This document shows positions 12,812 to 58,688 of a DNA stretch of 64,000 nt, one piece after another (the stretch's first letter is position 1; every line of letters begins with the position of its first letter). The translations under genes were made by a program, and so were the position numbers. The stretch covers positions 146,957 to 210,956 of the forward strand of contig JAIOPO010000005.1 of the NCBI GenBank assembly GCA_021413905.1, in the 5' to 3' direction. This DNA comes from Candidatus Nomurabacteria bacterium. Lineage in GTDB: Bacteria > Patescibacteriota > Minisyncoccia > Phycocordibacterales > UBA9973. The notes below the pieces were generated by a model that saw nothing but the letters and a program-made list of their open reading frames with translations, made no database searches and was not told the origin of the DNA.

Positions 12812-12975
12812 AGACAAAAAGCTCCTAGCCAGCGATAGTCCGAAGACTACCCGTAACCGTTTCCAGCTACGACCCAACAAAGGTGAACTCTGACTAGGAG
12901 TTCTTTACCTTTGTTGGGATTCATGTGACCATACCATTTTGACTATAAAAAACTACAGATAAAATGGGTTAGGTC
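12812..12975 (-). ncRNA. Copy 4, diverged, of a novel structured leader RNA motif (see findings); it ends in an intrinsic terminator immediately upstream of the 11373-12779 gene.
   Basis: The minus-strand read is GACCUAACCC...GGUAUGGUC...[cccaacaaaggt...AAAGAACUCCUAGUCAGAGUU...acctttgttggg] UCGUAGCUG-GAAA-CGGUUAC [tagtc-UUCG-gacta] ...GCUGGCUAGGAGCuuuuu. It is co-linear with copies at 27789, 39286 and 58546 and shows compensatory stem changes. Confidence 0.55.
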
Positions 12976-15386: not shown

Positions 15387-15614
15387 ATGAGCTTTAAAAC
15401 AGGAACAAGTTTGATAATAATATTGCTTGCAATATGGAGTCTTTTATGGAAATGTTATTCAACATGGACAGCATCAAAAAAAGATGATAAAAGATGGTTT
15501 ATCATATTAATAATATTAAATACTTTTGGTATTTTAGATATGATTTATGTTTTTGGTGTAGCAAATAAAAAATGGTCTGATGTTAAAAATACATTCAAAA
15601 ATTTTTTGAAATAA
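15387..15614 (+). CDS. Small 2-TM membrane protein, possibly a PLD-nuclease N-terminal (PLDc_N)-like domain.
   Basis: 75 aa with two hydrophobic helices; W..ILIILNTFGILDMIYVFG resembles the PLDc_N motif. Confidence 0.35.
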   Translation: MSFKTGTSLIIILLAIWSLLWKCYSTWTASKKDDKRWFIILIILNTFGILDMIYVFGVANKKWSDVKNTFKNFLK

Positions 15615-15703
15615 AGCAATATAATTAAATCAAAAATATTTTTGGAGGCGTCGCATTGCGCCTCTACGGCGCATCTGCCGAGGAGGCAGAAGTGGATAAT
15701 AAT

Positions 15704-15964
15704 ATGTACTACTTTTATGTATTAAGATTTCATAAAAATAAAAAACTATATTATGGTTTTACAAATGATTTAAAGCGCAGAATAAAAGAACATAGAGCTG
15801 GAAATTCTGATTTTAGTTCTAAAAATGGAATATTTGACTTAATCTTCTATGAAGCTTATATTAGTAAAGAGGATGCTAGAGAAGCAGAAAAATATTTCAA
15901 AACAGGACATGGAAGAGAGGTTTTGAAAAATAAATTGAAAAATTATTTTGGAGGCGTCGCATAG
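15704..15964 (+). CDS. GIY-YIG nuclease superfamily protein (YhbQ/URI-like, about 86 aa); its 3' end overlaps the 5' end of tRNA-Ser.
   Basis: MYYFYVLRF...KLYYGFTNDLKRRIKEHRAG is a GIY-YIG core. The ATG at 15704 is preferred over the upstream TTG at 15656. The stop codon TAG lies inside GGAGGCGTCGCATAG, which is the start of the tRNA. Confidence 0.75.
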   Translation: MYYFYVLRFHKNKKLYYGFTNDLKRRIKEHRAGNSDFSSKNGIFDLIFYEAYISKEDAREAEKYFKTGHGREVLKNKLKNYFGGVA

Positions 15965-16036
15965 TGGTTTAGTGCACCTGTCTTGAAAACAGGAGTACCG
16001 CAAGGTACCGTGAGTTCGAATCTCACCGCCTCCGCC
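15950..16036 (+). tRNA. tRNA-Ser (anticodon TGA) with a long variable arm.
   Basis: GGAGGCGTCGCATAGTGGTTTAGTGCACCTGTCTTGAAAACAGGAGTACCGCAAGGTACCGTGAGTTCGAATCTCACCGCCTCCGCC; the anticodon loop is CTTGAAA. Confidence 0.85.
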
Positions 16037-16112
16037 TTGACAACCTGTTAGTTTCGTGTCCCGACTGCCTGAGGTGGCAGTGCGACCCGAGTGCTACCAT
16101 GGTTGTAACAAA

Positions 16113-16146
16113 AACGGAGCATAATGTGCTCCGTTTTTGTTTTTTC
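16113..16146 (+). terminator. Intrinsic terminator downstream of tRNA-Ser.
   Basis: aACGGAGCAtaatgTGCTCCGTtttttgttttttc. Confidence 0.65.
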
Positions 16147-16199
16147 TTCTATAATTTCTCCGAAAAAATTGAATTTGGTACGTATGCTAGAATTAGCAT

Positions 16200-19100
16200 G
16201 TGGATCAATATATACAGCCCATCACAAAGGTATTCACCTCTTTTGAAGAGGCTAAGAACGATGTCGACCAAAATGGTCACTCGTCTCTTTTCATTGATGA
16301 CCGCAAGATACTCAGCCTTACTGACCTCGCCCAAGGAAACCGTAATTTAATCGTTGGCGAGCCGGGCGTTGGAAAGACCGAGCTTCTGAAGAAATTTAAG
16401 GCGCACCATGACACCCTTGGCGACAAGACATGCTTGGTTAATCTTCGCATCGGAAGTCCGATTGAACAGATTGATTCCTTTTTAAAAGAAACGACAACAG
16501 CAAAAAAGGTTCTCATTCTCGACGCACTCGACGAGGTTCGCTCGTCTATTTTCCCGAATGTGCTTCAAAAAATAGAGACTGTATCAAAAGAGAATCCTGA
16601 TCTGATCATTTATCTGTCTTCTCGCTGGATATTCGTAAGCAAATACGCCAACAGCTTTCCGGACTTTCGATTCATCAGAATTCTGCCGTTCTCGACATGG
16701 CAGGTGAAAAAATATCTCATGCATGCCGGACACACTGAGGCTGATGTCGATGCGCTCCTTGCGCGGATCATGCATTTCAATCACGGAAAGCTTTTGGTTC
16801 AAATTCCTCGGTATCTATTTTTCCTAGTTGCCTTTATAAAAGACAAGACCATCGCAAACGTTTCTCAGATATCGAGAAACGAGCTGTTTGAATACTTCAT
16901 TTACTCCAAGCTCGACATTGAGGACAAAAATCTTAACACCGACACGAAGGCGGTCATCAAGCGCATACTGGAAAAACTCGCACTGACAATGGAAATATAT
17001 CAGGCGAACACCATTACGAAAGATGAGCTTATGACATTCTTCGACGATATCGAGTCAGATCTCAAACTGACCGTGCTTTCACATATTACGCTTGAAGTCT
17101 TTTATGCGAAGACTATTCTTCAGGAAAGTACACAGGATCTCAACAGTGTTGAATTTGAAAACGCCGAATTCCAAGAATATCTCGCGGCAAAGGAAATTAC
17201 ACGCTTCTCCGAACCGCACCGTGTCGCTTTCGACTTCGCCGTCGAGGAAAATATCGATGAGATACTTCCGTCATGGTTCAATACGCTCACGTTTCTCGTC
17301 GATATGATTCCCGACATACTCGAACAGCTCTTGGAATTCTCAGGTCTGAGAAGCGGAACATTCAAGATTGCCGATGAAGGATTTTTAAATTTTCTCGGCA
17401 GAGTGAATCCAACAAGCATCTCGTCTGAATTTCGAAGCCGTATATTCATGGACGTAATCAACTATCACGAAAAGACCTTGCAATGGATTCCGGGGCAACT
17501 GACCCATTCGCTTCCGGGCTTCTTCAGTATTGCTCTTGAGGCAGATCTCAAGCGTCTTGCGGAAAGTGCAGAAAAAGAAACTGGCACAAATTATTTCGTG
17601 AAGCTCGGGAATATTGCGTATACGGTTGCGTACTTGTTTGATGCAAAAGTCGCACTCGACAAACCGTACTGGCGCGAAAAACTAATCTCCTACACAAAAG
17701 ACAAAAATGAAAACGGTGTATTGCAACGCCATGCGCTTTTGGCTCTCGAAAAGCTTGGCGACCCAACCGTCATCGACGAGCTACCGAATCTATTACTCGG
17801 GAATGACGAGCTGGTCGCGCGCGAATTTGTATCTGCCTGCATCGCGCTCGATCCAGACCACCCGAAGAGTGTTATCTATGCGATGCAATTGATAAAAGAT
17901 GGTGAGCTGTCCGGTCGGTATGGACTGTTTGAAATGAAAAAGAAATCATCCATCGTTGCCTTTTTCAAGGAATACATAAAAGATGACAAGTTCAGAAAGG
18001 AATTCCTCGATGATGTCCCTATCCTAGGTGAGCAGGATGTCGCGCTCGTCAAAAACATTGAAGCGATTCTCGATGATGAAATTGCGGAACTGTGTAAGGA
18101 GGTTATTGCAAAATCAATCGAAAGCTACCTCCACCAGTCAATCGACCAGTCTGCGTTCGTGAACGGATTGTTTCAATTGCTCAAGAAAAGGGACTCGGGA
18201 TTCATATCAGAAATAGTCAGACGTTTACACAAGGACGATGAGAAAAAACATACCCTGTACTTCGCCCAAGAAACATTTGCGCGAATACTTGGAAAAGACG
18301 ACATCGTTCCATTCCTCGGTGTCATGATTGAGCTTGGTCAACAGAAGATGGCGATGGATACGATGGTTAGAATTAAATATTCCAAGCGCGATGCCTGCGA
18401 AGAAATGTTCGAGTTTGGAAGAAGCAAGTTGCCGACGGAATATGCTGAGTGGGAGGCGGCTATTCAGCGGGGCACACCTCCGGCGGATACTTCACGGACG
18501 GATAAAATGCTCAAGGAATTCAGATTGTACCTACAACCCAAAAAGGGAGAATTTACGATGGGTGTTTTTCATCATTATATCCACGCCGCTGACACACTCG
18601 ATCCGCTCCTAACGAAAAAGGATAAAGACCGACTGATCGAATTGATTACCGGCAGTGTCTTGAACCAAAATCCGACAGCGCATGGCTTCACTATTCAATC
18701 AGAACATCCAGATGGCGGCACTCAACGATACACTACGAGCCAAGTCGTCCAGATGTTTGGTGATGCTCTCCGCGCCGCTCAGCGACTTGGTGTCGATATC
18801 ACTCCGTACCGAAAAAATATCGCGCTCTATATTCCATTCGCATACAGCGAAGAACTTAAAACTATTTTCGAGCTGATTAAAGACTTCAAGCCGGACGAGC
18901 TTGATCCGGTCATTGCGATATATCAGGAGAAAAAAGATGACCTCTGGCGACACCAACCAGAAAGCTTTGCGAATCTCGCACAACAGTATCATCTAGTTGC
19001 GGCAGTTCCCGTACTCCGCGATTTTGTGAAAGAGTCTCGCTTCCGTATCTACAATAGATGCGAGATGTTGAGGATTATTGATTCTCTTGCACCCGATGCC

Positions 19101-20282
19101 GGTTTTCTCAAGGAGATATTCGATCTTTACATCAACAGCGAAAACGAAAAAGAGATTGCGTATATTGCAAACGGTCTTTTGATTACTTCCCACGCCAACG
19201 CCGACGCTATTAACTGGCGACTCGAGGAAATAAAGAAACGCCCATTTGCTTCAAGTCTTCGACCTTACGGAGTAGTCCATAATGTTGGAGTAGAAGAAAA
19301 CGAGTTGCGTCACGATAAGCCGTTTGCCAAGCCACTCTCCGAACTCAAATATTCGGGATTTGAAGAAAAATATCTCGAACTGCTTGATAGCGCGATTGAG
19401 GTCTGGTCTCGTGGGAAGCAGTTTCAGGAGTACGCACAATATATGTGGGAAATCGTGCATTCCTATTTTGAAAATCTCAAAGAGGATCGAGACTACAGAC
19501 CGCTCAGAATGCTCGAAGAAAAAATTGCTACGCTCAAAAATAAAGAAGGGGCAAACTGGCTCGCTTCAAGCATGGTTCGCTTGCGCCGTTCGTATTTGGC
19601 GTATCTTGGAAAGCCGAAGAATTTCTCTGAGGCAATTCGTAACTACAACAAGGCACGAACATTTGAGGAAAAGAAAATCCGCAATTCTGCCGATTTGTTC
19701 CATCACTTACAAGACGTAATCAGTACCGAAATAAAACAATGGGTTGTTGACGATGGAGCATACAATATCATCGTCTCGAAAAAGAAGTACGCAAAAGAAA
19801 ATAAGGAATATGAAAAGCTTGTGCAAATGACAATCGGATCTGAAATCAGTAACGCATGCAGAGGACGCGGTTTTAGAATTGATCTGGCTCGCGAACAGCA
19901 GAAGCTCGATGGGAAGAAAACAGATTTCATTGTCCGTTACGGCTTCGTGGGTCCTATCGTACTCGAAGTGAAGCTCGGCTCCAGTTCGGATTTAAAAATG
20001 AAAAATCCTGAGAATTCAAAATCCTACGAGAGTATGGGAAATTACATGAAGGGATACGGTGCTTCACACGGTATTTTCCTGATCATGGATGACACTGGCG
20101 CAAAGCACATTATGAGAGCAAAGGAAGTGTTCAACCGTATCCCGAGCGTATCAGCAATGGTTCTCGACTGCTTCACTCCGGCGACAAAAAACCAAGCTCG
20201 AAAAACATCGACAACCAAGAAAAAATTAACAAAGAAAAAGTCTGTTGAAAAAACCAAAAAGGCTACTGCGAAAAAATCATAA
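16200..20282 (+). CDS. STAND/NACHT-type P-loop NTPase of 1360 aa with a central HEAT-repeat region, a C-terminal PD-(D/E)xK nuclease-like domain and a Lys-rich tail. Candidate antiviral NLR-like defense protein.
   Basis: Walker A LIVGEPGVGKTELLKKF and Walker B KKVLILDALDEV are present, followed by LIIYLSSR. HEAT/PBS-lyase-like repeats are seen at LQRHALLALEKLGDPTVIDELPNLLLGNDELVAREFVSA. The C-terminus ...KKTDFIVRYGFVGPIVLEVKLGSS gives a D...ExK arrangement, and the tail is KKKLTKKKSVEKTKKATAKKS. The start is GTG at 16200, directly after an in-frame TAG. Confidence 0.75.
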   Translation: MDQYIQPITKVFTSFEEAKNDVDQNGHSSLFIDDRKILSLTDLAQGNRNLIVGEPGVGKTELLKKFKAHHDTLGDKTCLVNLRIGSPIEQIDSFLKETTTAKKVLILDALDEVRSSIFPNVLQKIETVSKENPDLIIYLSSRWIFVSKYANSFPDFRFIRILPFSTWQVKKYLMHAGHTEADVDALLARIMHFNHGKLLVQIPRYLFFLVAFIKDKTIANVSQISRNELFEYFIYSKLDIEDKNLNTDTKAVIKRILEKLALTMEIYQANTITKDELMTFFDDIESDLKLTVLSHITLEVFYAKTILQESTQDLNSVEFENAEFQEYLAAKEITRFSEPHRVAFDFAVEENIDEILPSWFNTLTFLVDMIPDILEQLLEFSGLRSGTFKIADEGFLNFLGRVNPTSISSEFRSRIFMDVINYHEKTLQWIPGQLTHSLPGFFSIALEADLKRLAESAEKETGTNYFVKLGNIAYTVAYLFDAKVALDKPYWREKLISYTKDKNENGVLQRHALLALEKLGDPTVIDELPNLLLGNDELVAREFVSACIALDPDHPKSVIYAMQLIKDGELSGRYGLFEMKKKSSIVAFFKEYIKDDKFRKEFLDDVPILGEQDVALVKNIEAILDDEIAELCKEVIAKSIESYLHQSIDQSAFVNGLFQLLKKRDSGFISEIVRRLHKDDEKKHTLYFAQETFARILGKDDIVPFLGVMIELGQQKMAMDTMVRIKYSKRDACEEMFEFGRSKLPTEYAEWEAAIQRGTPPADTSRTDKMLKEFRLYLQPKKGEFTMGVFHHYIHAADTLDPLLTKKDKDRLIELITGSVLNQNPTAHGFTIQSEHPDGGTQRYTTSQVVQMFGDALRAAQRLGVDITPYRKNIALYIPFAYSEELKTIFELIKDFKPDELDPVIAIYQEKKDDLWRHQPESFANLAQQYHLVAAVPVLRDFVKESRFRIYNRCEMLRIIDSLAPDAGFLKEIFDLYINSENEKEIAYIANGLLITSHANADAINWRLEEIKKRPFASSLRPYGVVHNVGVEENELRHDKPFAKPLSELKYSGFEEKYLELLDSAIEVWSRGKQFQEYAQYMWEIVHSYFENLKEDRDYRPLRMLEEKIATLKNKEGANWLASSMVRLRRSYLAYLGKPKNFSEAIRNYNKARTFEEKKIRNSADLFHHLQDVISTEIKQWVVDDGAYNIIVSKKKYAKENKEYEKLVQMTIGSEISNACRGRGFRIDLAREQQKLDGKKTDFIVRYGFVGPIVLEVKLGSSSDLKMKNPENSKSYESMGNYMKGYGASHGIFLIMDDTGAKHIMRAKEVFNRIPSVSAMVLDCFTPATKNQARKTSTTKKKLTKKKSVEKTKKATAKKS

Positions 20283-20649: not shown

Positions 20650-21993
20650 TTATTTTTCTTCGTTTTCTTTTAGTAAAGTAATTTTCTTGTTGTTCAGTAC
20701 CAATCTCGTCCGCAGGTGACCCATCAGCTCGCGCTTCTCAAGCGGCGTACCCTCGCGGAGGACGTACTTCGCGTACTCTCTTGTATTCACATCGTCCTCG
20801 TTGATTGAATACTTCGGTGTACCTTTGGTCGCCAGTCGTTGTAGCCGGTTGAATCGTTTGATTTCTTCCTCCAGTTTCATTCGCATTCCCAGTTCATTGA
20901 TGCTCACTTGATCAATTACCTTGAACAGTTCCTCGATCAATTCTTCCTCGCGGATGTATTTGTTCTTGCAGTTGCGATCTCTTGCCTTCGAGCAGGAGTA
21001 GTAGACATACTTGGCCGTCGTCGTGTCTTTTAGCTCCTTGTACTTCTCCTGCGCCGTGATACCCGAGCCACATAGTCCGCAGGTAAACAATTTCGTGAAT
21101 GCGAATTCTCGATTTTCTCGCACAATCTTGTCTCGTTTCAGTTGCTCTTGTGCTTTCTCGTACAGTTCTTTCGTTATGATCGGCTCATGCTTCCCGTCGT
21201 ACCAATTGCCGGAGTCTCGGGGATACTCGAATGGTCCGTAGTAAATCGGCATGTTGAATATTCGGTACACTCCGCTCAGTGTCAGCGGCCGATTTCCTCT
21301 GGTGTGGAAATTCAGATCGAATCTGAGCCAGTTGTACACCTTTCGTCCGCTCCACCCCTCGTATGCCACTTTCTCGAACATTTTCCGGACGATCGGGGCG
21401 CGGTCGGGGTCGATTGCGATCTGGCATTTCCGGTCGAGCAGTTTCTGGTTCAGATACCCAAGCGGTGCCATGCCCGGCCAGAGTCCCATCTCAACCCTCG
21501 TTCGCAGTCCGCGCTTCACGTTAATGCCTCGGTTGTCGTTTTCGAGCTTCGCTTGCGAGCCGAGAATCATGAGCAGGAATTTCTCGTTCGGGTTGTTTCC
21601 GAACGTCTGCCCGAAGGTGCGTATCTGGTGCAATTTTCCCGCGTCCATGAGGTCGACAATTTTCCCGAGGTCACCCGCGTTTCTACTAATTCGATCCGGT
21701 GCCCATGTCAGGATGCCGTTGAACTTTCCGGCTCGCAGTTCGTCGATGATCTCGTTGAACACTGGCCGCTGACCCGTCTCTTTCGCGCTGTGACTCTCAC
21801 GCTTCATGGTCACAATCTCCAACCCCTCGCGCTCGGCCAGTTGGAGCATCTCCTTGATCTGGCTGTCGATGCTGAGCACCTGCCTCTCTTCCGACTCTGT
21901 CGATTTTCTCGCGTAGAGGCAGTATTTCATCTTGATCGGGATGACTACTTTGGCCGTCGTCCCTAATGGCGCTTGCGTTTGTGTATGGTTCAT
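20650..21993 (-). CDS. Large serine recombinase, integrase type, copy R1.
   Basis: YARKSTESEERQVLSIDSQ is the resolvase catalytic-Ser region. A recombinase domain follows, then the CGLCGSG...CSKARDRNC zinc ribbon and a C-terminal coiled-coil. The probable start is the M of MNHTQ... at about 21993, although the ORF is open to 22080. It is paralogous to 37815-39134 and 53409-54737. Confidence 0.85.
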   Translation of the reverse strand: MNHTQTQAPLGTTAKVVIPIKMKYCLYARKSTESEERQVLSIDSQIKEMLQLAEREGLEIVTMKRESHSAKETGQRPVFNEIIDELRAGKFNGILTWAPDRISRNAGDLGKIVDLMDAGKLHQIRTFGQTFGNNPNEKFLLMILGSQAKLENDNRGINVKRGLRTRVEMGLWPGMAPLGYLNQKLLDRKCQIAIDPDRAPIVRKMFEKVAYEGWSGRKVYNWLRFDLNFHTRGNRPLTLSGVYRIFNMPIYYGPFEYPRDSGNWYDGKHEPIITKELYEKAQEQLKRDKIVRENREFAFTKLFTCGLCGSGITAQEKYKELKDTTTAKYVYYSCSKARDRNCKNKYIREEELIEELFKVIDQVSINELGMRMKLEEEIKRFNRLQRLATKGTPKYSINEDDVNTREYAKYVLREGTPLEKRELMGHLRTRLVLNNKKITLLKENEEK

Positions 21994-22049
21994 ACATCTA
22001 CAGGAATGACGCAATACCGCTATGGAGTCCAGAGCGTCCCGAGTGGTAG

Positions 22050-22060
22050 GTGTTGGTAAC
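22050..22060. promoter_or_regulatory. Recombinase-associated conserved core GTGTTGGTAAC; putative attachment-site core at the R1 site.
   Basis: The same 11-mer recurs at 27696, 39189, 54793 and as GCTGTTGGTAAC at 58454. The left arm ...GATGACGCAA..AGAGCGTCCC is shared with the R3 site. Confidence 0.45.
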
Positions 22061-22083
22061 TTTTTTCTTGATATACTCACTAT

Positions 22084-27788: not shown

Positions 27789-27943
27789 GACCTAACCCCG
27801 AAAGGCCTTGTGGCTTCTCGGATATGGTCAAAAAACCGCTACAGTATAAAAGACTCCTCGTCAGAGTCACTGTAGCGGTCGTATCCGGAAACGGGTATGG
27901 GTTTAGCCGAAAGGCTGAATCGCGATGGCGAGGAGTCTTTTAT
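27789..27943 (+). ncRNA. Structured leader RNA copy 1 of the novel motif: promoter-proximal, covarying helices, GAAA tetraloop hairpins and a terminal intrinsic terminator.
   Basis: GACCUAACCCC[ccga..ucgg]GGAUAUGGUC AAAAAA [ccgctacagt AUAAAAGACUCCUCGUCAGAGUC actgtagcgg] UCGUAUCCG-GAAA-CGGGUAUGG [agcc-GAAA-ggct] ..GGCGAGGAGUCuuuu. The 3' segment CGAGGAGUC is complementary to GACUCCUCG in the apical loop. Confidence 0.6.
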
Positions 27944-32591: not shown

Positions 32592-33348
32592 ATATTTTTT
32601 CGACTTTTAGCTTGGTAAGTTTTTCCCATCGGTCGATGATGGTCTGGCAGTACTCGGTGTCCATCTCGACTCCGATACAGATGCGCTTCGTCTGCTCGCA
32701 GGCAAGGAGCGTCGTGCCACTTCCGAGGAAGCCATCGAACACGACATCGCCGATGCGCGTGCTGTTGAGTACGAGTTGGCGTATTAATCCAATTGGCTTC
32801 GTCGATGGATGCCAAGGACTGCGGTTCGGTCGCGGATGCACGATGACGCTCTTGTCTTTCGATTTGAGAAATTCGTGCGTGCCGTACCATCCGTAGGCGA
32901 TCAGTTCGTGTTGCGGTGCGTAGTCCATGCGACCGATGACGGCATGCGTTTTGACCCAGATGAGCAGTTGCGTGAACTTCATTCCGGCGGCAAGCATGCC
33001 GTTACGAAGCGCGAATATCATCTTGTCGCAGTTGAAGATGTAGAAGGCGTTCTTGCGTTCGAGATGCGGTCGAATTGCTTCGATCCAGTCACGAGAGAAT
33101 GCCTCATATTCGGCATCACTCTGCAAATGATCATTCGCGATTGTCTTGTCTTTGAGCAAAGGCTTGAGAGCTTTCTTACTTTCAGTCAGATTCACACCGT
33201 ATGGCGGATCTGTAATCACTGCCTTGATCTTCCTGTTAGCGACGAGTCTCGCGACCATGTCCTTGTTTCGGGAGTCCGCACAGAGAAGTAAGTGATTTCC
33301 GAGGCGAAAGGTATCGCCGTATTTAATTGAGTTTTGTGATTGGGTCAT
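32584..33348 (-). CDS. DNA methyltransferase (N6-adenine / N4-cytosine, beta class).
   Basis: Motif IV VITDPPYG precedes motif I DGFLGSGTT. It is paralogous to 62235-62984. Confidence 0.85.
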   Translation of the reverse strand: MTQSQNSIKYGDTFRLGNHLLLCADSRNKDMVARLVANRKIKAVITDPPYGVNLTESKKALKPLLKDKTIANDHLQSDAEYEAFSRDWIEAIRPHLERKNAFYIFNCDKMIFALRNGMLAAGMKFTQLLIWVKTHAVIGRMDYAPQHELIAYGWYGTHEFLKSKDKSVIVHPRPNRSPWHPSTKPIGLIRQLVLNSTRIGDVVFDGFLGSGTTLLACEQTKRICIGVEMDTEYCQTIIDRWEKLTKLKVEKIYE

Positions 33349-34648
33349 TGGATATTTTCTTAAATCTGTTAATGATTACTTGGCAGAACACGGGATCCCA
33401 CTCGCAGACGTACGCCGTGCGATTGAGCTGTTCGCATGCCGACAGCATGCTTCCCGAACCGGCCGTCATGTCGAGAACGATGTCGCCGGGCTTTGTACAC
33501 CTACGCAAAATTTTCTCGTGAATTGAGGGCGATTTTTGGGTCGGGTGTTCCATCTCACTTCCGGCCATACGCTTGACCATCCAGATATTGAGCAAGTCGA
33601 GGATGTCTTCGATGAGACGGTTGCCGGTACTGACTTCTTTGTTCTGAACCTCGTTGTAGTTCTTGACCTTGTCCGAGAGGTATGGACGACCCATCGTGCC
33701 GTAGACGACGAATTCTGTTACTTTGTTGAAAGCGTTTTTAGGCGTGGGCGAGGCGTTGTCCTTAATCCAAATACAGAGACGCTTCGAGTCAATCTTCAAT
33801 TCCTTGAACACTGTCTGAAAGAGCCAGACGTAGCGTTCGTCGCACCACCATGCCTGATGGCAGTCCGGCTTTGAGACGGCGAGCGCGTTCTGCATGATGA
33901 CCTGCACGAATGCGCGGTACGCATCGTCCGTCATATTGTCTTTGGTTTTGCCGCCATACCCACCGTTCTTTTTGCCGACACCTTTGTCGTAACTGAGATC
34001 AATGTTGTAAGGTAAATCCGTATCGACGAGGTCTGCTCTCGCGTCTCCCATTAATATCTTTGCCGTCTCGGGGAGCGTTGCATCCCCACAGATTAATTTG
34101 TGGCGACCGAGTTGGAATATATCGCCCATCTGTATCTCCGTCTCTTTCGCTTTCTCGACTTCATCCTCCTCGTTGAAGTTTTCGTTTGCTTCGACTTCGA
34201 GGTTGTCGTCGAAGATGTTACTCAAATCCATTGAGTCGAATCCGGCATTCAAGAGTTCGCCGAGATCGAAGTCTCGGGCGAGAGCCTCCCAGTCCCAAGA
34301 AGCCCCCGACCTATTTGACGTAAGTAGGTAGTCTTTGAACTCTGCCTCTGTTAATTTACGATTCGGTACGCGCACTTCAATTTCTTCCTCGCCTCTGCCA
34401 AGCAGGGAGAGCGCGAGGACGCGCTGATTACCGGCGACGAGCGTGCCGTCCGTGTTGATACATGGCAGTTCTGCGACGTTGAATTTTTTGAGACTGCGCT
34501 TGAGTCCTTCGAGTTGAACGGAGGAAAGCGTACGCGGATTTTTTGAATATGGTACGAGCGAATCCACTTTTCGCTTTTCTGTGTGCCATTCTAATTTTTG
34601 TTGAGACATAGGCTGTTTACTTTTGTTTCTTATTAATAAAGAAGACAA
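33323..34648 (-). CDS. ParB-like nuclease N-terminal domain fused to a DNA methyltransferase.
   Basis: ParB/Srx-like VPYSKNPRTLS...GNQRVLAL. The MTase motifs are TDLPYN and LDMTAGSGSM. It is paralogous to 42410-43690 and 62971-63999. Confidence 0.8.
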   Translation of the reverse strand: MSSLLIRNKSKQPMSQQKLEWHTEKRKVDSLVPYSKNPRTLSSVQLEGLKRSLKKFNVAELPCINTDGTLVAGNQRVLALSLLGRGEEEIEVRVPNRKLTEAEFKDYLLTSNRSGASWDWEALARDFDLGELLNAGFDSMDLSNIFDDNLEVEANENFNEEDEVEKAKETEIQMGDIFQLGRHKLICGDATLPETAKILMGDARADLVDTDLPYNIDLSYDKGVGKKNGGYGGKTKDNMTDDAYRAFVQVIMQNALAVSKPDCHQAWWCDERYVWLFQTVFKELKIDSKRLCIWIKDNASPTPKNAFNKVTEFVVYGTMGRPYLSDKVKNYNEVQNKEVSTGNRLIEDILDLLNIWMVKRMAGSEMEHPTQKSPSIHEKILRRCTKPGDIVLDMTAGSGSMLSACEQLNRTAYVCEWDPVFCQVIINRFKKISNDPITKLN

Positions 34649-35309: not shown

Positions 35310-35990
35310 ATGCTAAAATATTTCTACATGCAATTCGACACAAGTCACTTACTCATCGGAATTTTGAAAGGAATGTGGGCGTTCAAAAAACTCTGGCTAC
35401 TCGCCGGAGGCGTTTTTCTCCTCGCGCTCGCGTTGCAAGTGGTGACCGATTTGCTCAACCGCAAAAGTAGAATTCGCTGGTTCTTCAGCAAGAAAAAGAT
35501 TTTAGATTTACAGCGACTCACTCCATCCGAGTTTGAATCGTACACAGCCGAGTTGTTTCGCTCCCTCGGTTACAAGACGCGAGTCGTCGGCGGTGTCGGT
35601 GACGGGGGCATAGATGTTGAAGCCGAGAAGGACGGAGTTGTCCACTACATCCAGTGCAAGAAGTTCATCACACGCCAAGTGCCGGTCGGTGCAGTACGAG
35701 ACTTCTACGGCGCAATTGCCGACAAGTTAAACGGAGGGAAGGGTTACTTCATTACCACAAACATCTTTACTCTGGATGCCGAGAAATTCGCCGAGGGTAA
35801 GCCGATTGAACTCGTCGACAGATTCAAGCTCATGGACTACCTGCGTCTCGCCAAGGTCGATGCGCCTGTCGGCACCACCAGTTCTGTCTGTCCGAAGTGC
35901 GGCGGACGGCTCGTTGAGCGATCCGGCAAATTCGGTCGTTTCCTTGGCTGTTGCAATTACCCGAAATGCTCTTATACTGTAAAGGCGTAG
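35310..35990 (+). CDS. Membrane-anchored Mrr-like restriction endonuclease catalytic domain with a C-terminal topoisomerase-type zinc ribbon.
   Basis: N-terminal TM LWLLAGGVFLLALALQVV. The Mrr_cat-like segment is GGVGDGGIDVEAEKDGVVHYIQCKKF. The C-terminal zinc ribbon is CPKCGGRLVERSGKFGRFLGCCNYPKC. Confidence 0.6.
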   Translation: MLKYFYMQFDTSHLLIGILKGMWAFKKLWLLAGGVFLLALALQVVTDLLNRKSRIRWFFSKKKILDLQRLTPSEFESYTAELFRSLGYKTRVVGGVGDGGIDVEAEKDGVVHYIQCKKFITRQVPVGAVRDFYGAIADKLNGGKGYFITTNIFTLDAEKFAEGKPIELVDRFKLMDYLRLAKVDAPVGTTSSVCPKCGGRLVERSGKFGRFLGCCNYPKCSYTVKA

Positions 35991-36277
35991 AGGGAGGGTT
36001 TGCATTTTAGAAAACACTTTTGAAATCCGTCAAGACCGTTTTCACCCTCTAAAATTTGTAAATGAGACAGTGCTGAAAACCGCGTTTTTGTGTCTCATCT
36101 GTAACATTCACAAATATGAGACCGCGACCCACAAAGCTAATTTTAACGGGTGCGAGTATCCGAAACAACCCTTGTGGGGGTTGGGAGTCTGGGTACCGTA
36201 CCCACGTACACCGCCATTGACAGGTAGCACGAGATGCACACAAAAAGCACCTACTAGGTGCTTTTTGTGTTTAATAA

Positions 36278-39285: not shown

Positions 39286-39432
39286 GACCTAACCCCTAAA
39301 AGCCTTTGGTTTATAGGATATGGTCAAAATCCTTCCCAGTAAAAAACTCCTCGTCAGAGTTACCTGGGAAGGTCGTATCTGGAAACAGATACGGATCACC
39401 GAAAGGTGGTCGCTGACGGGGAGCTTTTTGTT
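39286..39432 (+). ncRNA. Structured leader RNA copy 2 of the novel motif.
   Basis: GACCUAACCCC[ccua..uagg]GGAUAUGGUC AAAA [ccttcccagt AAAAAACUCCUCGUCAGAGUU acctgggaagg] UCGUAUCUG-GAAA-CAGAUACGG [cacc-GAAA-ggtg] GCUGACGGGGAGCuuuuu. A -10 box TATAAT is at 39271. Confidence 0.6.
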
Positions 39433-58545: not shown

Positions 58546-58688
58546 AGACCTAACCCCTCAGGGATTTTCTTGAGGATATGGTCGAAAGCCCTATCAAGCA
58601 TAAAGAACCCGTCATGGGGTCGCTTGATAGGCCGTATTGGGAAACTGGTACGAGAGGTTTCGACCTCTACCCGTGGCGGGCTTTTTGT
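58546..58688 (+). ncRNA. Structured leader RNA copy 3 of the novel motif.
   Basis: GACCUAACCCC[ccuca..ugagg]GGAUAUGGUC GAAA [gccctatcaagc AUAAAGAACCCGUCAUGGGGUC gcttgatagggc] CGUAUUGG-GAAA-CUGGUACGA [gaggt-UUCG-acctc] uACCCGUGGCGGGcuuuuu. An extended -10 box TGgTATAAT is at 58517-58525. Confidence 0.6.

Follow-up and report, generated by a model that had tools for sequence, protein, structure and literature searches.

The locus analysed here raises the question of how a gene for a small GIY-YIG protein came to lie between two copies of the 5' end of a tRNA-Ser gene, with its last codons inside the tRNA itself. It is located in a stretch of 64,000 nucleotides (the window) of a contig of a Candidatus Nomurabacteria bacterium (JAIOPO010000005.1). 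First-pass annotation of the window had reported a 17-nt repeat, the second copy of which coincides with the start of tRNA-Ser, and this repeat proved to be exact: TTTTGGAGGCGTCGCAT occurs on the + strand at 15640-15656 and 15946-15962, as a direct repeat with these two occurrences only. In 100 dinucleotide-preserving shuffles, not one match was obtained. The repeat is composed of 4 leader nt followed by nt 1-13 of tRNA-Ser and, when extended upstream, reaches 34 nt with 85% identity (15623-15656 vs 15929-15962); the additional 21 nt upstream match at 16 of 21 positions in a fixed register (P ~1e-4 to 1.6e-3 vs host sequence). The 289 bp between the two copies hold two hairpins and the GIY-YIG open reading frame (ORF) and nothing else, in agreement with the earlier statement that this segment encodes only the GIY-YIG protein. 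The features of the locus and of a neighbouring genomic island were as follows.

15623-15643, + strand: diverged copy of the last ~7 codons of the ORF (AATTAAATCAAAAATATTTTT vs AATAAATTGAAAAATTATTTT; 16/21 match)
15644-15656, + strand: 'left X', displaced upstream copy of tRNA-Ser nt 1-13 (GGAGGCGTCGCAT), identical to 15950-15962
15657-15673, no strand assigned: hairpin H1, TGCGCC-TCTAC-GGCGCA, conserved in 32 copies and absent at empty sites
15674-15690, no strand assigned: hairpin H2, TCTGCC-GAGGA-GGCAGA, with compensatory changes and approximately the reverse complement of H1
15691-15695, + strand: 'left Y', AGTGG, a copy of tRNA nt 14-18; this pentamer tracks the resident tRNA
15704-15964, + strand: GIY-YIG ORF of 86 aa, ATG at 15704 and TAG at 15962-15964 (Pfam PF01541 and homologues)
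15657-15962, + strand: 306-bp segment missing from empty sites (comparison with 24 empty loci, L049-L072, and the syntenic occupied loci L004, L007 and L010)
15950-16036, + strand: tRNA-Ser(UGA), intact and uninterrupted (ARAGORN; Rfam tRNA, 61.7 bits)
16082-16088 and 36124-36130: GCGACCC junctions of the neighbouring island (L054 shows the empty attB)

The ORF, the hairpins and the repeat were all absent from 24 of 24 metagenomic loci that carry the same tRNA-Ser(UGA) (L049-L072); a repeat without an insert, which would have spoken against an insertion, was found in none of them. With five occupied loci as opposed to these 24 empty ones, the tRNA-Ser(UGA) site is polymorphic. At syntenic empty sites the native flank upstream is followed directly by GGAGGCGTCGCAT|AGTGG, and in the occupied locus L007 by GGAGGCGTCGCAT|H1. 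Comparison with the 24 relatives thereby established a 306-bp insertion, consistent with the first-pass proposal that the nuclease gene had arrived through insertion or duplication at the 5' end of the tRNA. The insert contains, in order, the two GC-rich hairpins H1 and H2, AGTGG, a spacer and the ORF, and closes with a replacement for tRNA nt 1-13 that is joined to the ORF in frame. It entered between tRNA nt 13 and 14, in the D-loop region, with a precise junction, leaving the original tRNA 5' fragment stranded upstream and an intact tRNA re-created directly downstream. The upstream copy had originally been interpreted as a tRNA with a deleted middle, an interpretation that had to be abandoned: its CGCCTC motif is the 5' half of the H1 of the element, which also occurs at tRNA-Pro and tRNA-Gln, and the upstream tRNA fragment resumes after the hairpins, since AGTGG corresponds to tRNA nt 14-18. 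What lies upstream is therefore a truncated tRNA copy (first ~18 nt) that the hairpins split between nt 13 and 14.

The first 13 nt of tRNA-Ser(UGA) belong to the downstream repeat copy and overlap the end of the ORF. As noted at first pass, the TAG stop lies within the first 15 nt of the tRNA: it occupies tRNA nt 13-15, and tRNA nt 1-15 supply the last four codons (GGVA) together with the stop. Homologues placed the start codon at ATG 15704 (86 aa) and not at TTG 15656, as in the public annotation. Residues 1-71 matched Pfam PF01541 with 53.2 bits (cut-off 22.6; E 3.7e-14). More than 200 homologues were found at 70-86% identity, mostly of 86 aa, and the tRNA-Ser-encoded C-terminal tetrapeptide, G-x-[VFLI]-[AG], was present in 100 of the 120 top homologues. 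In the UPF0213/YhbQ family as a whole, ~1,000 clusters (50% identity) match the profile at E <= 1e-10. An AF2 model (pLDDT 84.6) showed a beta-beta-alpha-alpha-beta-alpha-alpha fold with residues 83-86 disordered, that is, an 82-residue fold followed by four disordered, tRNA-encoded residues, with no DNA-binding or auxiliary domain. A profile search against PDB sequences retrieved 1zg2 (E 5.6e-8) and 1ywl (E 1.8e-6), and Foldseek ranked 1zg2 first, followed by Slx1 (7cq2, 4xlg, 7cq4), ahead of 1ln0 and 1yd6. By profile and predicted fold, the protein is a minimal UPF0213/Slx1-like nuclease that consists of the domain only and is not I-TevI- or UvrC-like.

Residues Y3, F4, Y5, Y16, G18, R25, R26, H30, Y49 and E50, which we take to belong to the GIY-YIG catalytic core (Tyr strands, Arg and metal-binding Glu), were invariant in 31 sequences. 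Since these residues are invariant, the gene evolves under purifying selection (median pN/pS 0.23) and the predicted fold is confident, the evidence indicates that the protein is functional. Synonymous divergence (dS) was saturated in all comparisons of copies. A protein tree, based on 82 residues only, was weakly resolved, and copies at different anticodons were interleaved in it.

Directly upstream of left X, the diverged ORF-end copy at 15623-15643 is probably what remains of an earlier copy of the element, or a scar. Clearer remnants of ORF ends were found elsewhere, in L080 as a perfect 28-nt repeat that includes 15 nt of the ORF end and in L012 with 19/21 matches, and an ORF-end-like sequence, TTGAAAAATAAAT, is located immediately upstream of the tRNA in the syntenic empty sites L055 and L057. 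The traces of an older copy just upstream of the window copy suggest cycles of gain, decay and re-insertion.

GIY-YIG homologues elsewhere proved to be flanked by tRNA fragments likewise, as the first-pass annotation had proposed to check. About 40 of 48 genome loci from Patescibacteria shared a common plan: tRNA 5' fragment, H1, H2, the next ~5 tRNA nt, spacer, GIY-YIG ORF and intact tRNA. Resident tRNAs were tRNA-Ser (GGA, UGA, GCU and one ARAGORN 'act'), tRNA-Pro and tRNA-Gln, while more distant members occupied tRNA-Leu and included a 3'-side variant. Insertions were positioned in the D-loop or at the anticodon; L018 element B provides an anticodon case of the common plan, and L081 a D-loop case in a bacterial-type tRNA-Ser(GCU). 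Although tRNA 5' sequences differ between genomes, the upstream fragment was identical to nt 1-13 of the genome's own tRNA in 25 of 33 related loci. The pentamer after H2 likewise tracked the resident tRNA (AGT.. vs AGC..), with 7-9 matching nt in L008, L021 and L026 and with GACAC or GACAT in Gln/Pro loci and AAAAC in L018 element B. By eye, no target motif was shared by all insertion points (Ser 13|14, Ser 12|13, Pro/Gln ~21|22, Ser 36|37 and the TPM gene end, where off-target copies sit at the GRW* end of TPM-like genes without downstream duplication). On the sequence record, the family of such inserts is widespread in ultra-small Patescibacteria; literature searches yielded no description of a connection between small GIY-YIG genes and tRNA genes, in bacteria or CPR.

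Several loci showed signs of decay and rearrangement. The ORF was pseudogenised in L026, L033, L036, L037, L044 and L047; tandem or nested copies and remnants occurred in L018, L023, L012, L080 and L082; and hairpin inserts without an ORF were found in tRNA or tRNA-like sequence in L044 and L035. The upstream tRNA fragment was deleted or decayed next to an intact ORF in L014, L016, L020 and the P0019 population. In one MAG, the copies at two tRNA-Ser genes were each other's closest relatives. Flanking tRNA copies were in places mosaic or foreign, the downstream copy being foreign in L018 and the upstream copy in L003 and L038. Recent mobility was sought as one identical protein in several contexts and gained no support from P0019, whose protein occurred on 24 contigs in a single (upstream) genomic context. 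Phage origin was rejected, as a scan of viral contigs gave a single weak match of 31% identity.

The hairpins showed strong covariation. Across H1 and H2, 99.3% of cells were paired, with 13 compensatory cells and 0 one-sided changes, and none of 288 cells held a G:U pair, despite switches between C:G and U:A; H2, with its CG<->TA compensatory changes, had neither G:T nor A:C pairs. All changes in the H1 stem were Watson-Crick compensatory, and its loop followed TC-NN-C with variable NN. Hairpin sequences were ~91% identical across copies while synonymous sites were saturated; as judged from these comparisons, the hairpins are under selection. They are present at the left end of the element only, expand locally in some loci and occur inverted as a module in L029 relative to L024 and in L081 relative to L018 element B. 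H1 was also found beside tRNA-Pro and tRNA-Gln, whose acceptor stems differ. Neither hairpin has a T-run or was called by terminator prediction. The + strand RNA folds well, at -28 kcal/mol (z = -3.5), and an Rfam scan of 15550-16250 at E <= 10 returned the tRNA and noise only, with no intron or ribozyme match. The alternative hairpin proposed at first pass, GGAGGCGtcgcattgCGCCTC, formed by the acceptor 5' strand and CGCCTC, is present and able to fold in the window, but relatives do not conserve this pairing (79% paired, no compensatory change and one pair broken in 16/24), and H1/H2 were preferred. An H-like hairpin in the tmRNA of L011 occupies the tmRNA's own T-arm position and was rejected as an insertion.

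We consider it probable (roughly 0.6) that the insert is a small, tRNA-gene-specific selfish element that resides in the 5' part of tRNA-Ser(UGA), regenerates its target and probably rides on tRNA transcription. Insertion polymorphism, recurrent architecture, overlap with the tRNA, signatures of selfish elements, a functional protein and selected hairpins are all consistent with this reading. For the mechanism of mobility and the role of the hairpins, we infer the following scheme. The ORF, probably without a promoter of its own, would be read from a transcript that also yields the tRNA, and RNase P, in processing the 5' end of the tRNA, would trim the mRNA immediately behind codon 82, where the folded domain ends. 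The element may spread or persist in the manner of a free-standing homing endonuclease gene, through a nuclease break and recombination repair, with tRNA sequence on both sides providing homology. The hairpins would act as a cis element at the DNA level, most likely as substrate or landmark for a nuclease of the structure-specific type. The transcription model is made less certain by a promoter-like site within the ORF (15834-15862), which could feed the tRNA; since this site lies on the conserved FDLIFYEAY codons, its conservation is inseparable from constraint on the protein. Against the selfish-element reading stands the protein itself, with 86 aa and no DNA-binding domain, unlike characterised homing endonucleases. 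Moreover, a target confined to the tRNA would be restored along with the regenerated tRNA, and 13-22 nt of homology on the left side is little for recombination of the RecA type. The TPM-gene copies without downstream duplication and the age of all sampled copies relative to each other, as seen from saturated dS, also count against the main reading.

An alternative that we regard as unlikely, while giving it real weight, is that of a domesticated or resident host gene, which entered tRNA-Ser loci in the distant past, is now immobile and is kept for a host task of the nuclease (e.g. repair or RNA metabolism), with co-expression of the tRNA as a convenience and the repeat as a fossil. Strong purifying selection, saturated dS between copies, approximately one copy per genome and the stable context across the 24 contigs of one population would all fit such a gene. 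The occupied UGA-site copies in L004, L007 and L010 are syntenic, and UGA-site copies in the clade of the window could have been vertically inherited. Bacterial Slx1-like proteins are generally seen as vertically inherited and the UPF0213/Slx1-like family is described as repair-related; a role in RNA is hinted at by one fusion with a tRNA G18 methylase (PMC1564403). However, presence of the gene is patchy, with all 24 close relatives that share the tRNA being empty, and the element varies both in the tRNA that it occupies and in its position there. Pseudogenes, remnants of tandem copies and hairpins left without an ORF also argue against a resident gene, and an upstream fragment that matches the resident tRNA exactly in most loci, next to diverged neutral spacers, points to turnover and not to one ancient event.

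A more specific, and rather doubtful, version of the selfish-element reading concerns the sequences around the hairpins. X (nt 1-13) and Y (nt 14-18) might constitute a DNA 'address', and the insert a homology-addressed, re-targetable insertion system with an 86-aa nuclease. The X-hairpins-Y segment would pair with an uninterrupted tRNA gene, so that the hairpins are extruded as a branched structure at X|Y, where an Slx1-like structure-specific nuclease would cut; the target would be chosen by short flanking homology and DNA shape instead of by protein-DNA sequence reading. Such a system would have no need for a DNA-binding domain. It would also explain the presence of related proteins at the D-loop, at the anticodon, in Ser, Pro, Gln and Leu genes and at the D-loop-like GRW* gene end, the tracking of the resident tRNA by X and Y, the tolerance of the hairpins to inversion but not to wobble pairs, and their role as duplication hot spots.

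Somewhat less probable again is a device that acts at the RNA level, in which the upstream tRNA fragment and the hairpins function in the transcript, either as a 5' stabiliser or processing signal of the nuclease mRNA or as an alternative partner of the tRNA 3' acceptor strand that regulates tRNA/mRNA maturation. This possibility is compatible with the selfish-element reading. The stable folding of the + strand RNA, the covariation of the hairpins and their position directly 5' of an ORF that necessarily shares a transcript region with the tRNA are in accordance with it, as is an upstream fragment that tracks the resident tRNA. In contrast, the module occurs in either orientation relative to the ORF, the absence of G:U pairs from 288 cells despite C:G to U:A switches would be unexpected for RNA, and the upstream fragment has been lost or decayed beside intact ORFs. 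Hairpins moreover persist without any ORF, the acceptor-type pairing is not conserved and no Rfam match was obtained.

The proposed selfish element combines traits of several known systems. The T4 Seg family comprises free-standing phage GIY-YIG homing endonuclease genes, such as SegB in the T4 tRNA gene cluster, whose inheritance is thought to proceed by cutting of the empty allele and copying in together with flanking sequence (PMC2330249). Like the window element, these are stand-alone GIY-YIG genes among or against tRNA genes that are present or absent between relatives. Seg proteins, however, exceed 200 aa and have a DNA-binding domain, whereas the window protein is an 86-aa catalytic core from the Slx1/UPF0213 branch; and Seg genes lie between genes, whereas the window unit lies inside a tRNA gene, with duplication of the 5' end and conserved hairpins. 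The stand-alone Slx1-like UPF0213/YhbQ proteins (1zg2, BH0048; 1ywl, EF2693) belong to the same family by sequence and fold and have the same minimal size; no link of this family to tRNA-gene insertion, flanking tRNA fragments or hairpins emerged from the searches.

Within the same radiation, GIY-YIG-encoding insertions in CPR rRNA genes have been described that belong to neither intron class (group I or group II) and whose removal from the RNA is presumed; the description calls them sparse, places them outside homing and does not mention tRNA genes (PMC11270868). Both sets involve GIY-YIG ORFs in insertions in structural RNA genes, but, as far as the two can be compared by description, the rRNA insertions interrupt the RNA gene, whereas the window tRNA is regenerated by partial duplication. 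Group I introns with homing endonucleases in bacterial tRNAs also place a nuclease gene at a precise tRNA position in a manner neutral to the host. There, neutrality results from RNA splicing; in the window element it results from DNA duplication, with no ribozyme or room for one and with an uninterrupted downstream tRNA. IS200/IS605 and REP/RAYT elements share with the window element conserved DNA hairpins beside a small nuclease gene, changes restricted to Watson-Crick pairs and ORF-less hairpin derivatives. They rely on HUH Y1 transposases, have hairpins at both ends and cause no target duplication, in contrast to the window element, in which a GIY-YIG enzyme is the only ORF, the hairpins are confined to one end and a tRNA segment is duplicated.

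If the selfish-element reading is correct, it represents a new route by which selfish DNA can enter an essential, universally conserved gene and leave it unharmed. The usual route is to splice the insert from the RNA; the window element instead would bring a spare tRNA 5' piece and a reading frame that ends inside the tRNA. It would also provide the first biological context, as a mobile element, for at least part of the large, uncharacterised UPF0213/YhbQ family of minimal GIY-YIG nucleases. For Patescibacteria assemblies, the element accounts for broken contigs and wrongly called start codons at tRNA loci, and the flanking tRNA fragments are markers of tRNA gene turnover. A tiny structure-specific nuclease, a double hairpin and short target-derived flanks together make up a candidate for a compact, possibly re-addressable DNA-targeting system.

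Direct tRNA-segment repeats around an insert are a classic integrase signature, and a 20-kb island with a large serine recombinase adjoins the tRNA-Ser of the window, which raises the possibility that an integrase-driven element, such as this island, has the repeats as its attL and attR. Next to another occupied tRNA-Ser, a comparable recombinase island occurs in some cases and is missing in others. As in tRNA-integrating elements and islands, a replacement piece keeps the window tRNA intact. Such islands usually duplicate the 3' part of the tRNA, encode tyrosine or serine recombinases and are kilobases long, whereas the window insert has no recombinase, measures 306 bp and duplicates the 5' end, with a displaced copy that is split by hairpins. 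Most occupied loci, furthermore, have no such island. This very improbable explanation is effectively refuted by the separate GCGACCC junctions of the island, the first of which lies 46 nt downstream of the tRNA; a repeat of the tRNA 3' end was looked for at the far end of the island and was absent. A chance repeat or a conserved promoter or terminator feature of the tRNA locus, as AT-rich flanks and hairpins superficially like terminator stems might suggest, is already refuted by the failure of the exact 17-mer to appear in shuffles, by ORF-less relatives that lack both repeat and hairpins, and by stems without a T-run that terminator prediction did not flag. A 19-nt match between 15663-15681 and 35704-35722, which could be taken for a second repeat across the island, falls inside an Mrr-type restriction endonuclease ORF and was treated as chance, the true junctions being GCGACCC.

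The 17-nt direct repeat described in the first-pass annotation was recovered: TTTTGGAGGCGTCGCAT occurred at 15640-15656 and 15946-15962, the only two matches in the window, and was absent from 100 of 100 dinucleotide-preserving shuffles. ARAGORN and Rfam identified an intact tRNA-Ser(UGA) at 15950-16036, and the repeat therefore consisted of four leader bases followed by tRNA nt 1-13. When extended upstream, it reached 34 nt at 85% identity, with 16 of the additional 21 nt matching in register (P ~1e-4 to 1.6e-3 versus host sequence). The ORF between the repeats, previously read as a GIY-YIG gene, matched PF01541 (E 3.7e-14), and its TAG (15962-15964) did fall within the tRNA, at nt 13-15. Since ORF homologues were almost all 86 aa long and began with MYYFYVL, ATG 15704, rather than TTG 15656, represents the true start.

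Metagenome contigs were scanned with the anticodon-arm 28-mer of the window tRNA, which yielded 24 loci (L049-L072; L numbers denote loci on genome or metagenome contigs). In all 24, a GIY-YIG ORF, hairpin and repeat were absent upstream of the tRNA. Several of these empty loci were syntenic with the window; some bore the RuvX-side motif 'tactagcataaa...ctgataatatc', and in other syntenic loci the end of a DUF5652 gene was followed by the tRNA within ~25-35 nt. The native flank 'acaagtgaatat..GGAGGCGTCGCAT' was common to the occupied locus L007 and the empty locus L060. After this shared flank, L007 continued into a hairpin (H1), whereas L060 continued with AGTGG, thus locating the insertion at the boundary of tRNA nt 13 and 14. 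The insert of the window spanned 15657-15962 (306 bp) and comprised, in order:

15657-15673, hairpin H1, TGCGCC-TCTAC-GGCGCA
15674-15690, hairpin H2, TCTGCC-GAGGA-GGCAGA
15691-15695, AGTGG, equal to tRNA nt 14-18
between AGTGG and the ORF, spacer of 8 nt
ATG 15704 to TAG 15962-15964, GIY-YIG ORF
3' end of the insert, replacement copy of tRNA nt 1-13, encoding the final four codons of the ORF (GGVA)

Insertion occurred at nt 13|14, the tRNA was regenerated by the 5' segment carried by the element, and this architecture recurred across many loci. The stop codon of the ORF was formed by the end of the tRNA nt 1-13 copy and the following AG. In an AlphaFold model (pLDDT 84.6), the fold ended at residue 82 and residues 83-86 were disordered; the reading frame apparently simply continues into the tRNA until TAG is reached.

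Genome contigs were scanned with a 31-sequence alignment, yielding 48 loci, nearly all from contigs titled as Patescibacteria/CPR MAGs. In ~40 of the 48, the ORF abutted or overlapped the 5' end of a same-strand tRNA. As for the check suggested earlier, whether GIY-YIG homologues elsewhere lie beside tRNA fragments, a 5' fragment of the genome's own tRNA was present upstream of nearly every ORF. Homologues with 65-86% identity were hosted by tRNA-Ser with anticodon GGA (most loci), UGA, GCU or, in one case, an anticodon that ARAGORN reported as 'act', and those with 43-60% identity by tRNA-Pro and tRNA-Gln. The upstream fragment spanned nt 1-13 at Ser loci and ran from nt 1 to ~21 at Pro/Gln loci, and was followed by H1, H2 and the next 3-9 tRNA nt. 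It was identical to the resident tRNA in 25 of 33 loci, despite differences in tRNA 5' ends between genomes, and the pentamer after H2 tracked the resident D-loop (AGT versus AGC; GGCCTA, GGCT). A tRNA-Ser-encoded tail was present in 100 of the 120 top homologues. More distant members followed the plan at other positions. L018 bore, behind its first element, a second and divergent one whose insertion point was the anticodon (linear nt 36|37), and in L081 the insertion point was nt 12|13 of a tRNA-Ser(GCU) of bacterial type. Among distant relatives, L083 (1493-2060) displayed a mirror-image layout, with an intact tRNA-Leu(UAA) upstream of the ORF and a displaced tRNA-Leu 3' part (anticodon loop to 3' end, with a hairpin in its T-loop) downstream, while tRNA-Gln at L082 (1-648) was surrounded by tandem units with expanded 21-nt hairpin arrays. 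When 1.84 billion cluster representatives were searched with a profile, relatives numbered 8,995 at E <= 1e-3 and 1,044 at the stricter E <= 1e-10; at least 15-20 of 148 distant representatives inspected carried tRNA sequence in over-extended termini. Many of the MAG contigs (those of L013, L016, L019, L022, L030, L037 and L038) stopped within ~100-250 nt past the occupied tRNA, which hints that variable or repeated sequence beside these tRNA genes interrupts assembly.

On an alignment of 24 hairpin copies (A3), H1 and H2 were 99.3% paired, and no shuffle matched these covariation values. Double-sided changes were observed in five of 12 pairs (13 cells) and one-sided changes in none. Across 32 copies tallied separately, the loops conformed to TC-NN-C and G-NN-GA, with NN freely variable, and H2 approximated the reverse complement of H1. 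The acceptor-like hairpin proposed earlier, between acceptor nt 2-7 and CGCCTC, did not hold: it was 79% paired with zero compensatory changes, and its folding in the window reflects no more than the coincidence that this tRNA starts with GGAGGCG. The orientation of the hairpin module was opposite in L029 versus L024, and in L081 versus element B of L018. The module was locally duplicated in L006, L017, L027, L031, L035, L038 and L082, and occurred without an ORF inside tRNA or tRNA-like sequence in L044 and L035. Hairpins of this type did not form a genome-wide repeat, the window containing just the H1/H2 pair and one H2-like stem a short way downstream of the tRNA. Hairpin sequences were ~91% conserved while synonymous sites were saturated, and wobble pairs were absent. 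From this conservation, the orientation independence and the absence of wobble pairs, we infer that the hairpins act as a DNA-level cis element.

The H2-like hairpin (ACTGCC-TGAGGT-GGCAGT, 16063-16080) was situated 27 nt past the tRNA, at a position occupied by unrelated sequence in the empty relatives L054, L055 and L072, and may represent an isolated leftover of a 3'-side element. In L011 (1435-1866, minus strand), the T-arm position of a tmRNA held TCCGCC-TCATC-GGCGGA, of the same sequence type as the element hairpins; its interpretation as an insertion was rejected, as the Rfam alignment fits a T-arm instead. The public annotation of the window protein (102 aa, TTG start) runs through the hairpins at 15656-15703, and spurious N-terminal extensions, derived from translated H1H2 (RL.GA.A.EA, APLRRIRRRGG) or tRNA sequence, were frequent in database homologues.

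By sequence, the protein was nearest to the UPF0213 proteins BH0048 (1zg2, E 5.6e-8) and EF2693 (1ywl), which have been described as bacterial stand-alone Slx1-like minimal GIY-YIG domains (Dunin-Horkawicz et al., PMC1564403). Its predicted fold was nearest to 1zg2, followed by Slx1 (including the Slx1-Slx4 5'-flap complex), with I-TevI and UvrC ranking lower. Catalytic-core residues were invariant, median pN/pS was 0.23 and dS was saturated; the 86-aa protein is thus functional and the sampled copies are old.

The ORF was pseudogenised in several copies. L080 contained a perfect 28-nt repeat that included 15 nt of the ORF end and, upstream of it, an ORF-end remnant in a more advanced state of decay; L012 and L023 contained similar relics. 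The 34-nt repeat of the window is probably likewise what is left of a previous copy. Immediately 5' of the tRNA, the syntenic empty loci L055 and L057 bore TTGAAAAATAAAT, which resembles the ORF end and is possibly a scar. In one MAG, the copies at two tRNA-Ser genes were mutually closest (80.7% identity). At L018, the ORF-fused tRNA copy read GGAGAGG, versus GGAAGGG in the resident, and matched the type of tRNA occupied by relatives of this ORF; at L003 and L038, the foreign tRNA copy was the upstream one. Such mosaic flanks would be expected from reciprocal or conversion-type recombination within short tRNA homology. Three copies had a TPM-like gene as host, at the end encoding ...SGRW*; the codons there, AGGTGGTAG, resemble a tRNA D-loop. 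These units of hairpins and GIY-YIG ORF lay at the 3' ends of TPM/YgcG-like genes with Gly-rich tails:

L024, 3930-4270
L025, 770-1080
L029, 3930-4265

In L024 and L025, the TPM-gene stop codon now fell within H1, and no downstream duplication was visible at the three sites. The D-loop-like character of these gene ends points to target recognition at the DNA level. Saturated dS and the occurrence of one protein in a single context across a population count against recent activity. The upstream tRNA fragment was decayed or deleted in L014, L016, L020 and the population of P0019 (one homologue found on 24 contigs), where ORFs were intact, which argues against a strictly necessary role of this fragment.

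Upstream of the ATG, as far as the preceding gene, no convincing promoter was found. The tRNA precursor probably doubles as the transcript of the ORF, and cleavage by RNase P would cut the mRNA after codon 82. The structure is topologically that of single-crossover integration of a circle carrying X-H-Y-spacer-ORF, where X is the displaced copy of tRNA nt 1-13, H is H1 plus H2 and Y is the following ~5 tRNA nt. Spread would proceed by nuclease-stimulated recombination via tRNA identity on both sides, with the hairpins as a putative structural landmark or substrate for the Slx1-type nuclease. The element behaves like a free-standing homing endonuclease gene but lacks the defining DNA-binding domain; topologically, it resembles a tRNA-integrating island but lacks the defining recombinase. 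It is not an intron. In a bolder, less probable reading, target choice would be set by the flanking tRNA-derived segments together with the hairpin structure. In the literature searched, no description of tRNA-embedded small GIY-YIG elements was found, the nearest report concerning GIY-YIG-encoding non-intron insertions in CPR rRNA genes (PMC11270868).

A separate island of ~20 kb (16089-36130; 44-53% GC in a 28-34% GC host) was inserted 46 nt downstream of the tRNA-Ser. Its empty site, AGTGCGACCC|ACAAAGCT, was found in L054, L055 and L072, and its content looks like that of a defence island:

16082-16088 and 36124-36130, junction repeats GCGACCC
16200-20282, 1360-aa protein with weak, sub-threshold AAA/NACHT-type P-loop matches
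20650-22080, minus strand, large serine recombinase
33323-34648, DNA methylase
35310-35990, Mrr-type endonuclease

A similar recombinase island, ~105 nt downstream of another occupied tRNA-Ser, showed presence/absence variation (L074, L076 and L077 versus L075). The LOOT RNA motif (Rfam RF03000, 75-82 bits) occurred four times in the 64 kb, at 12834-12975 (minus), 27789-27921 (plus), 39286-39411 (plus) and 58547-58668 (plus), one copy being within the GC-rich island. From position 1 to ~7545, the minus strand held a single ORF of >2,500 codons that ran off the window start, presumably encoding a giant surface protein of the type usual in these bacteria.
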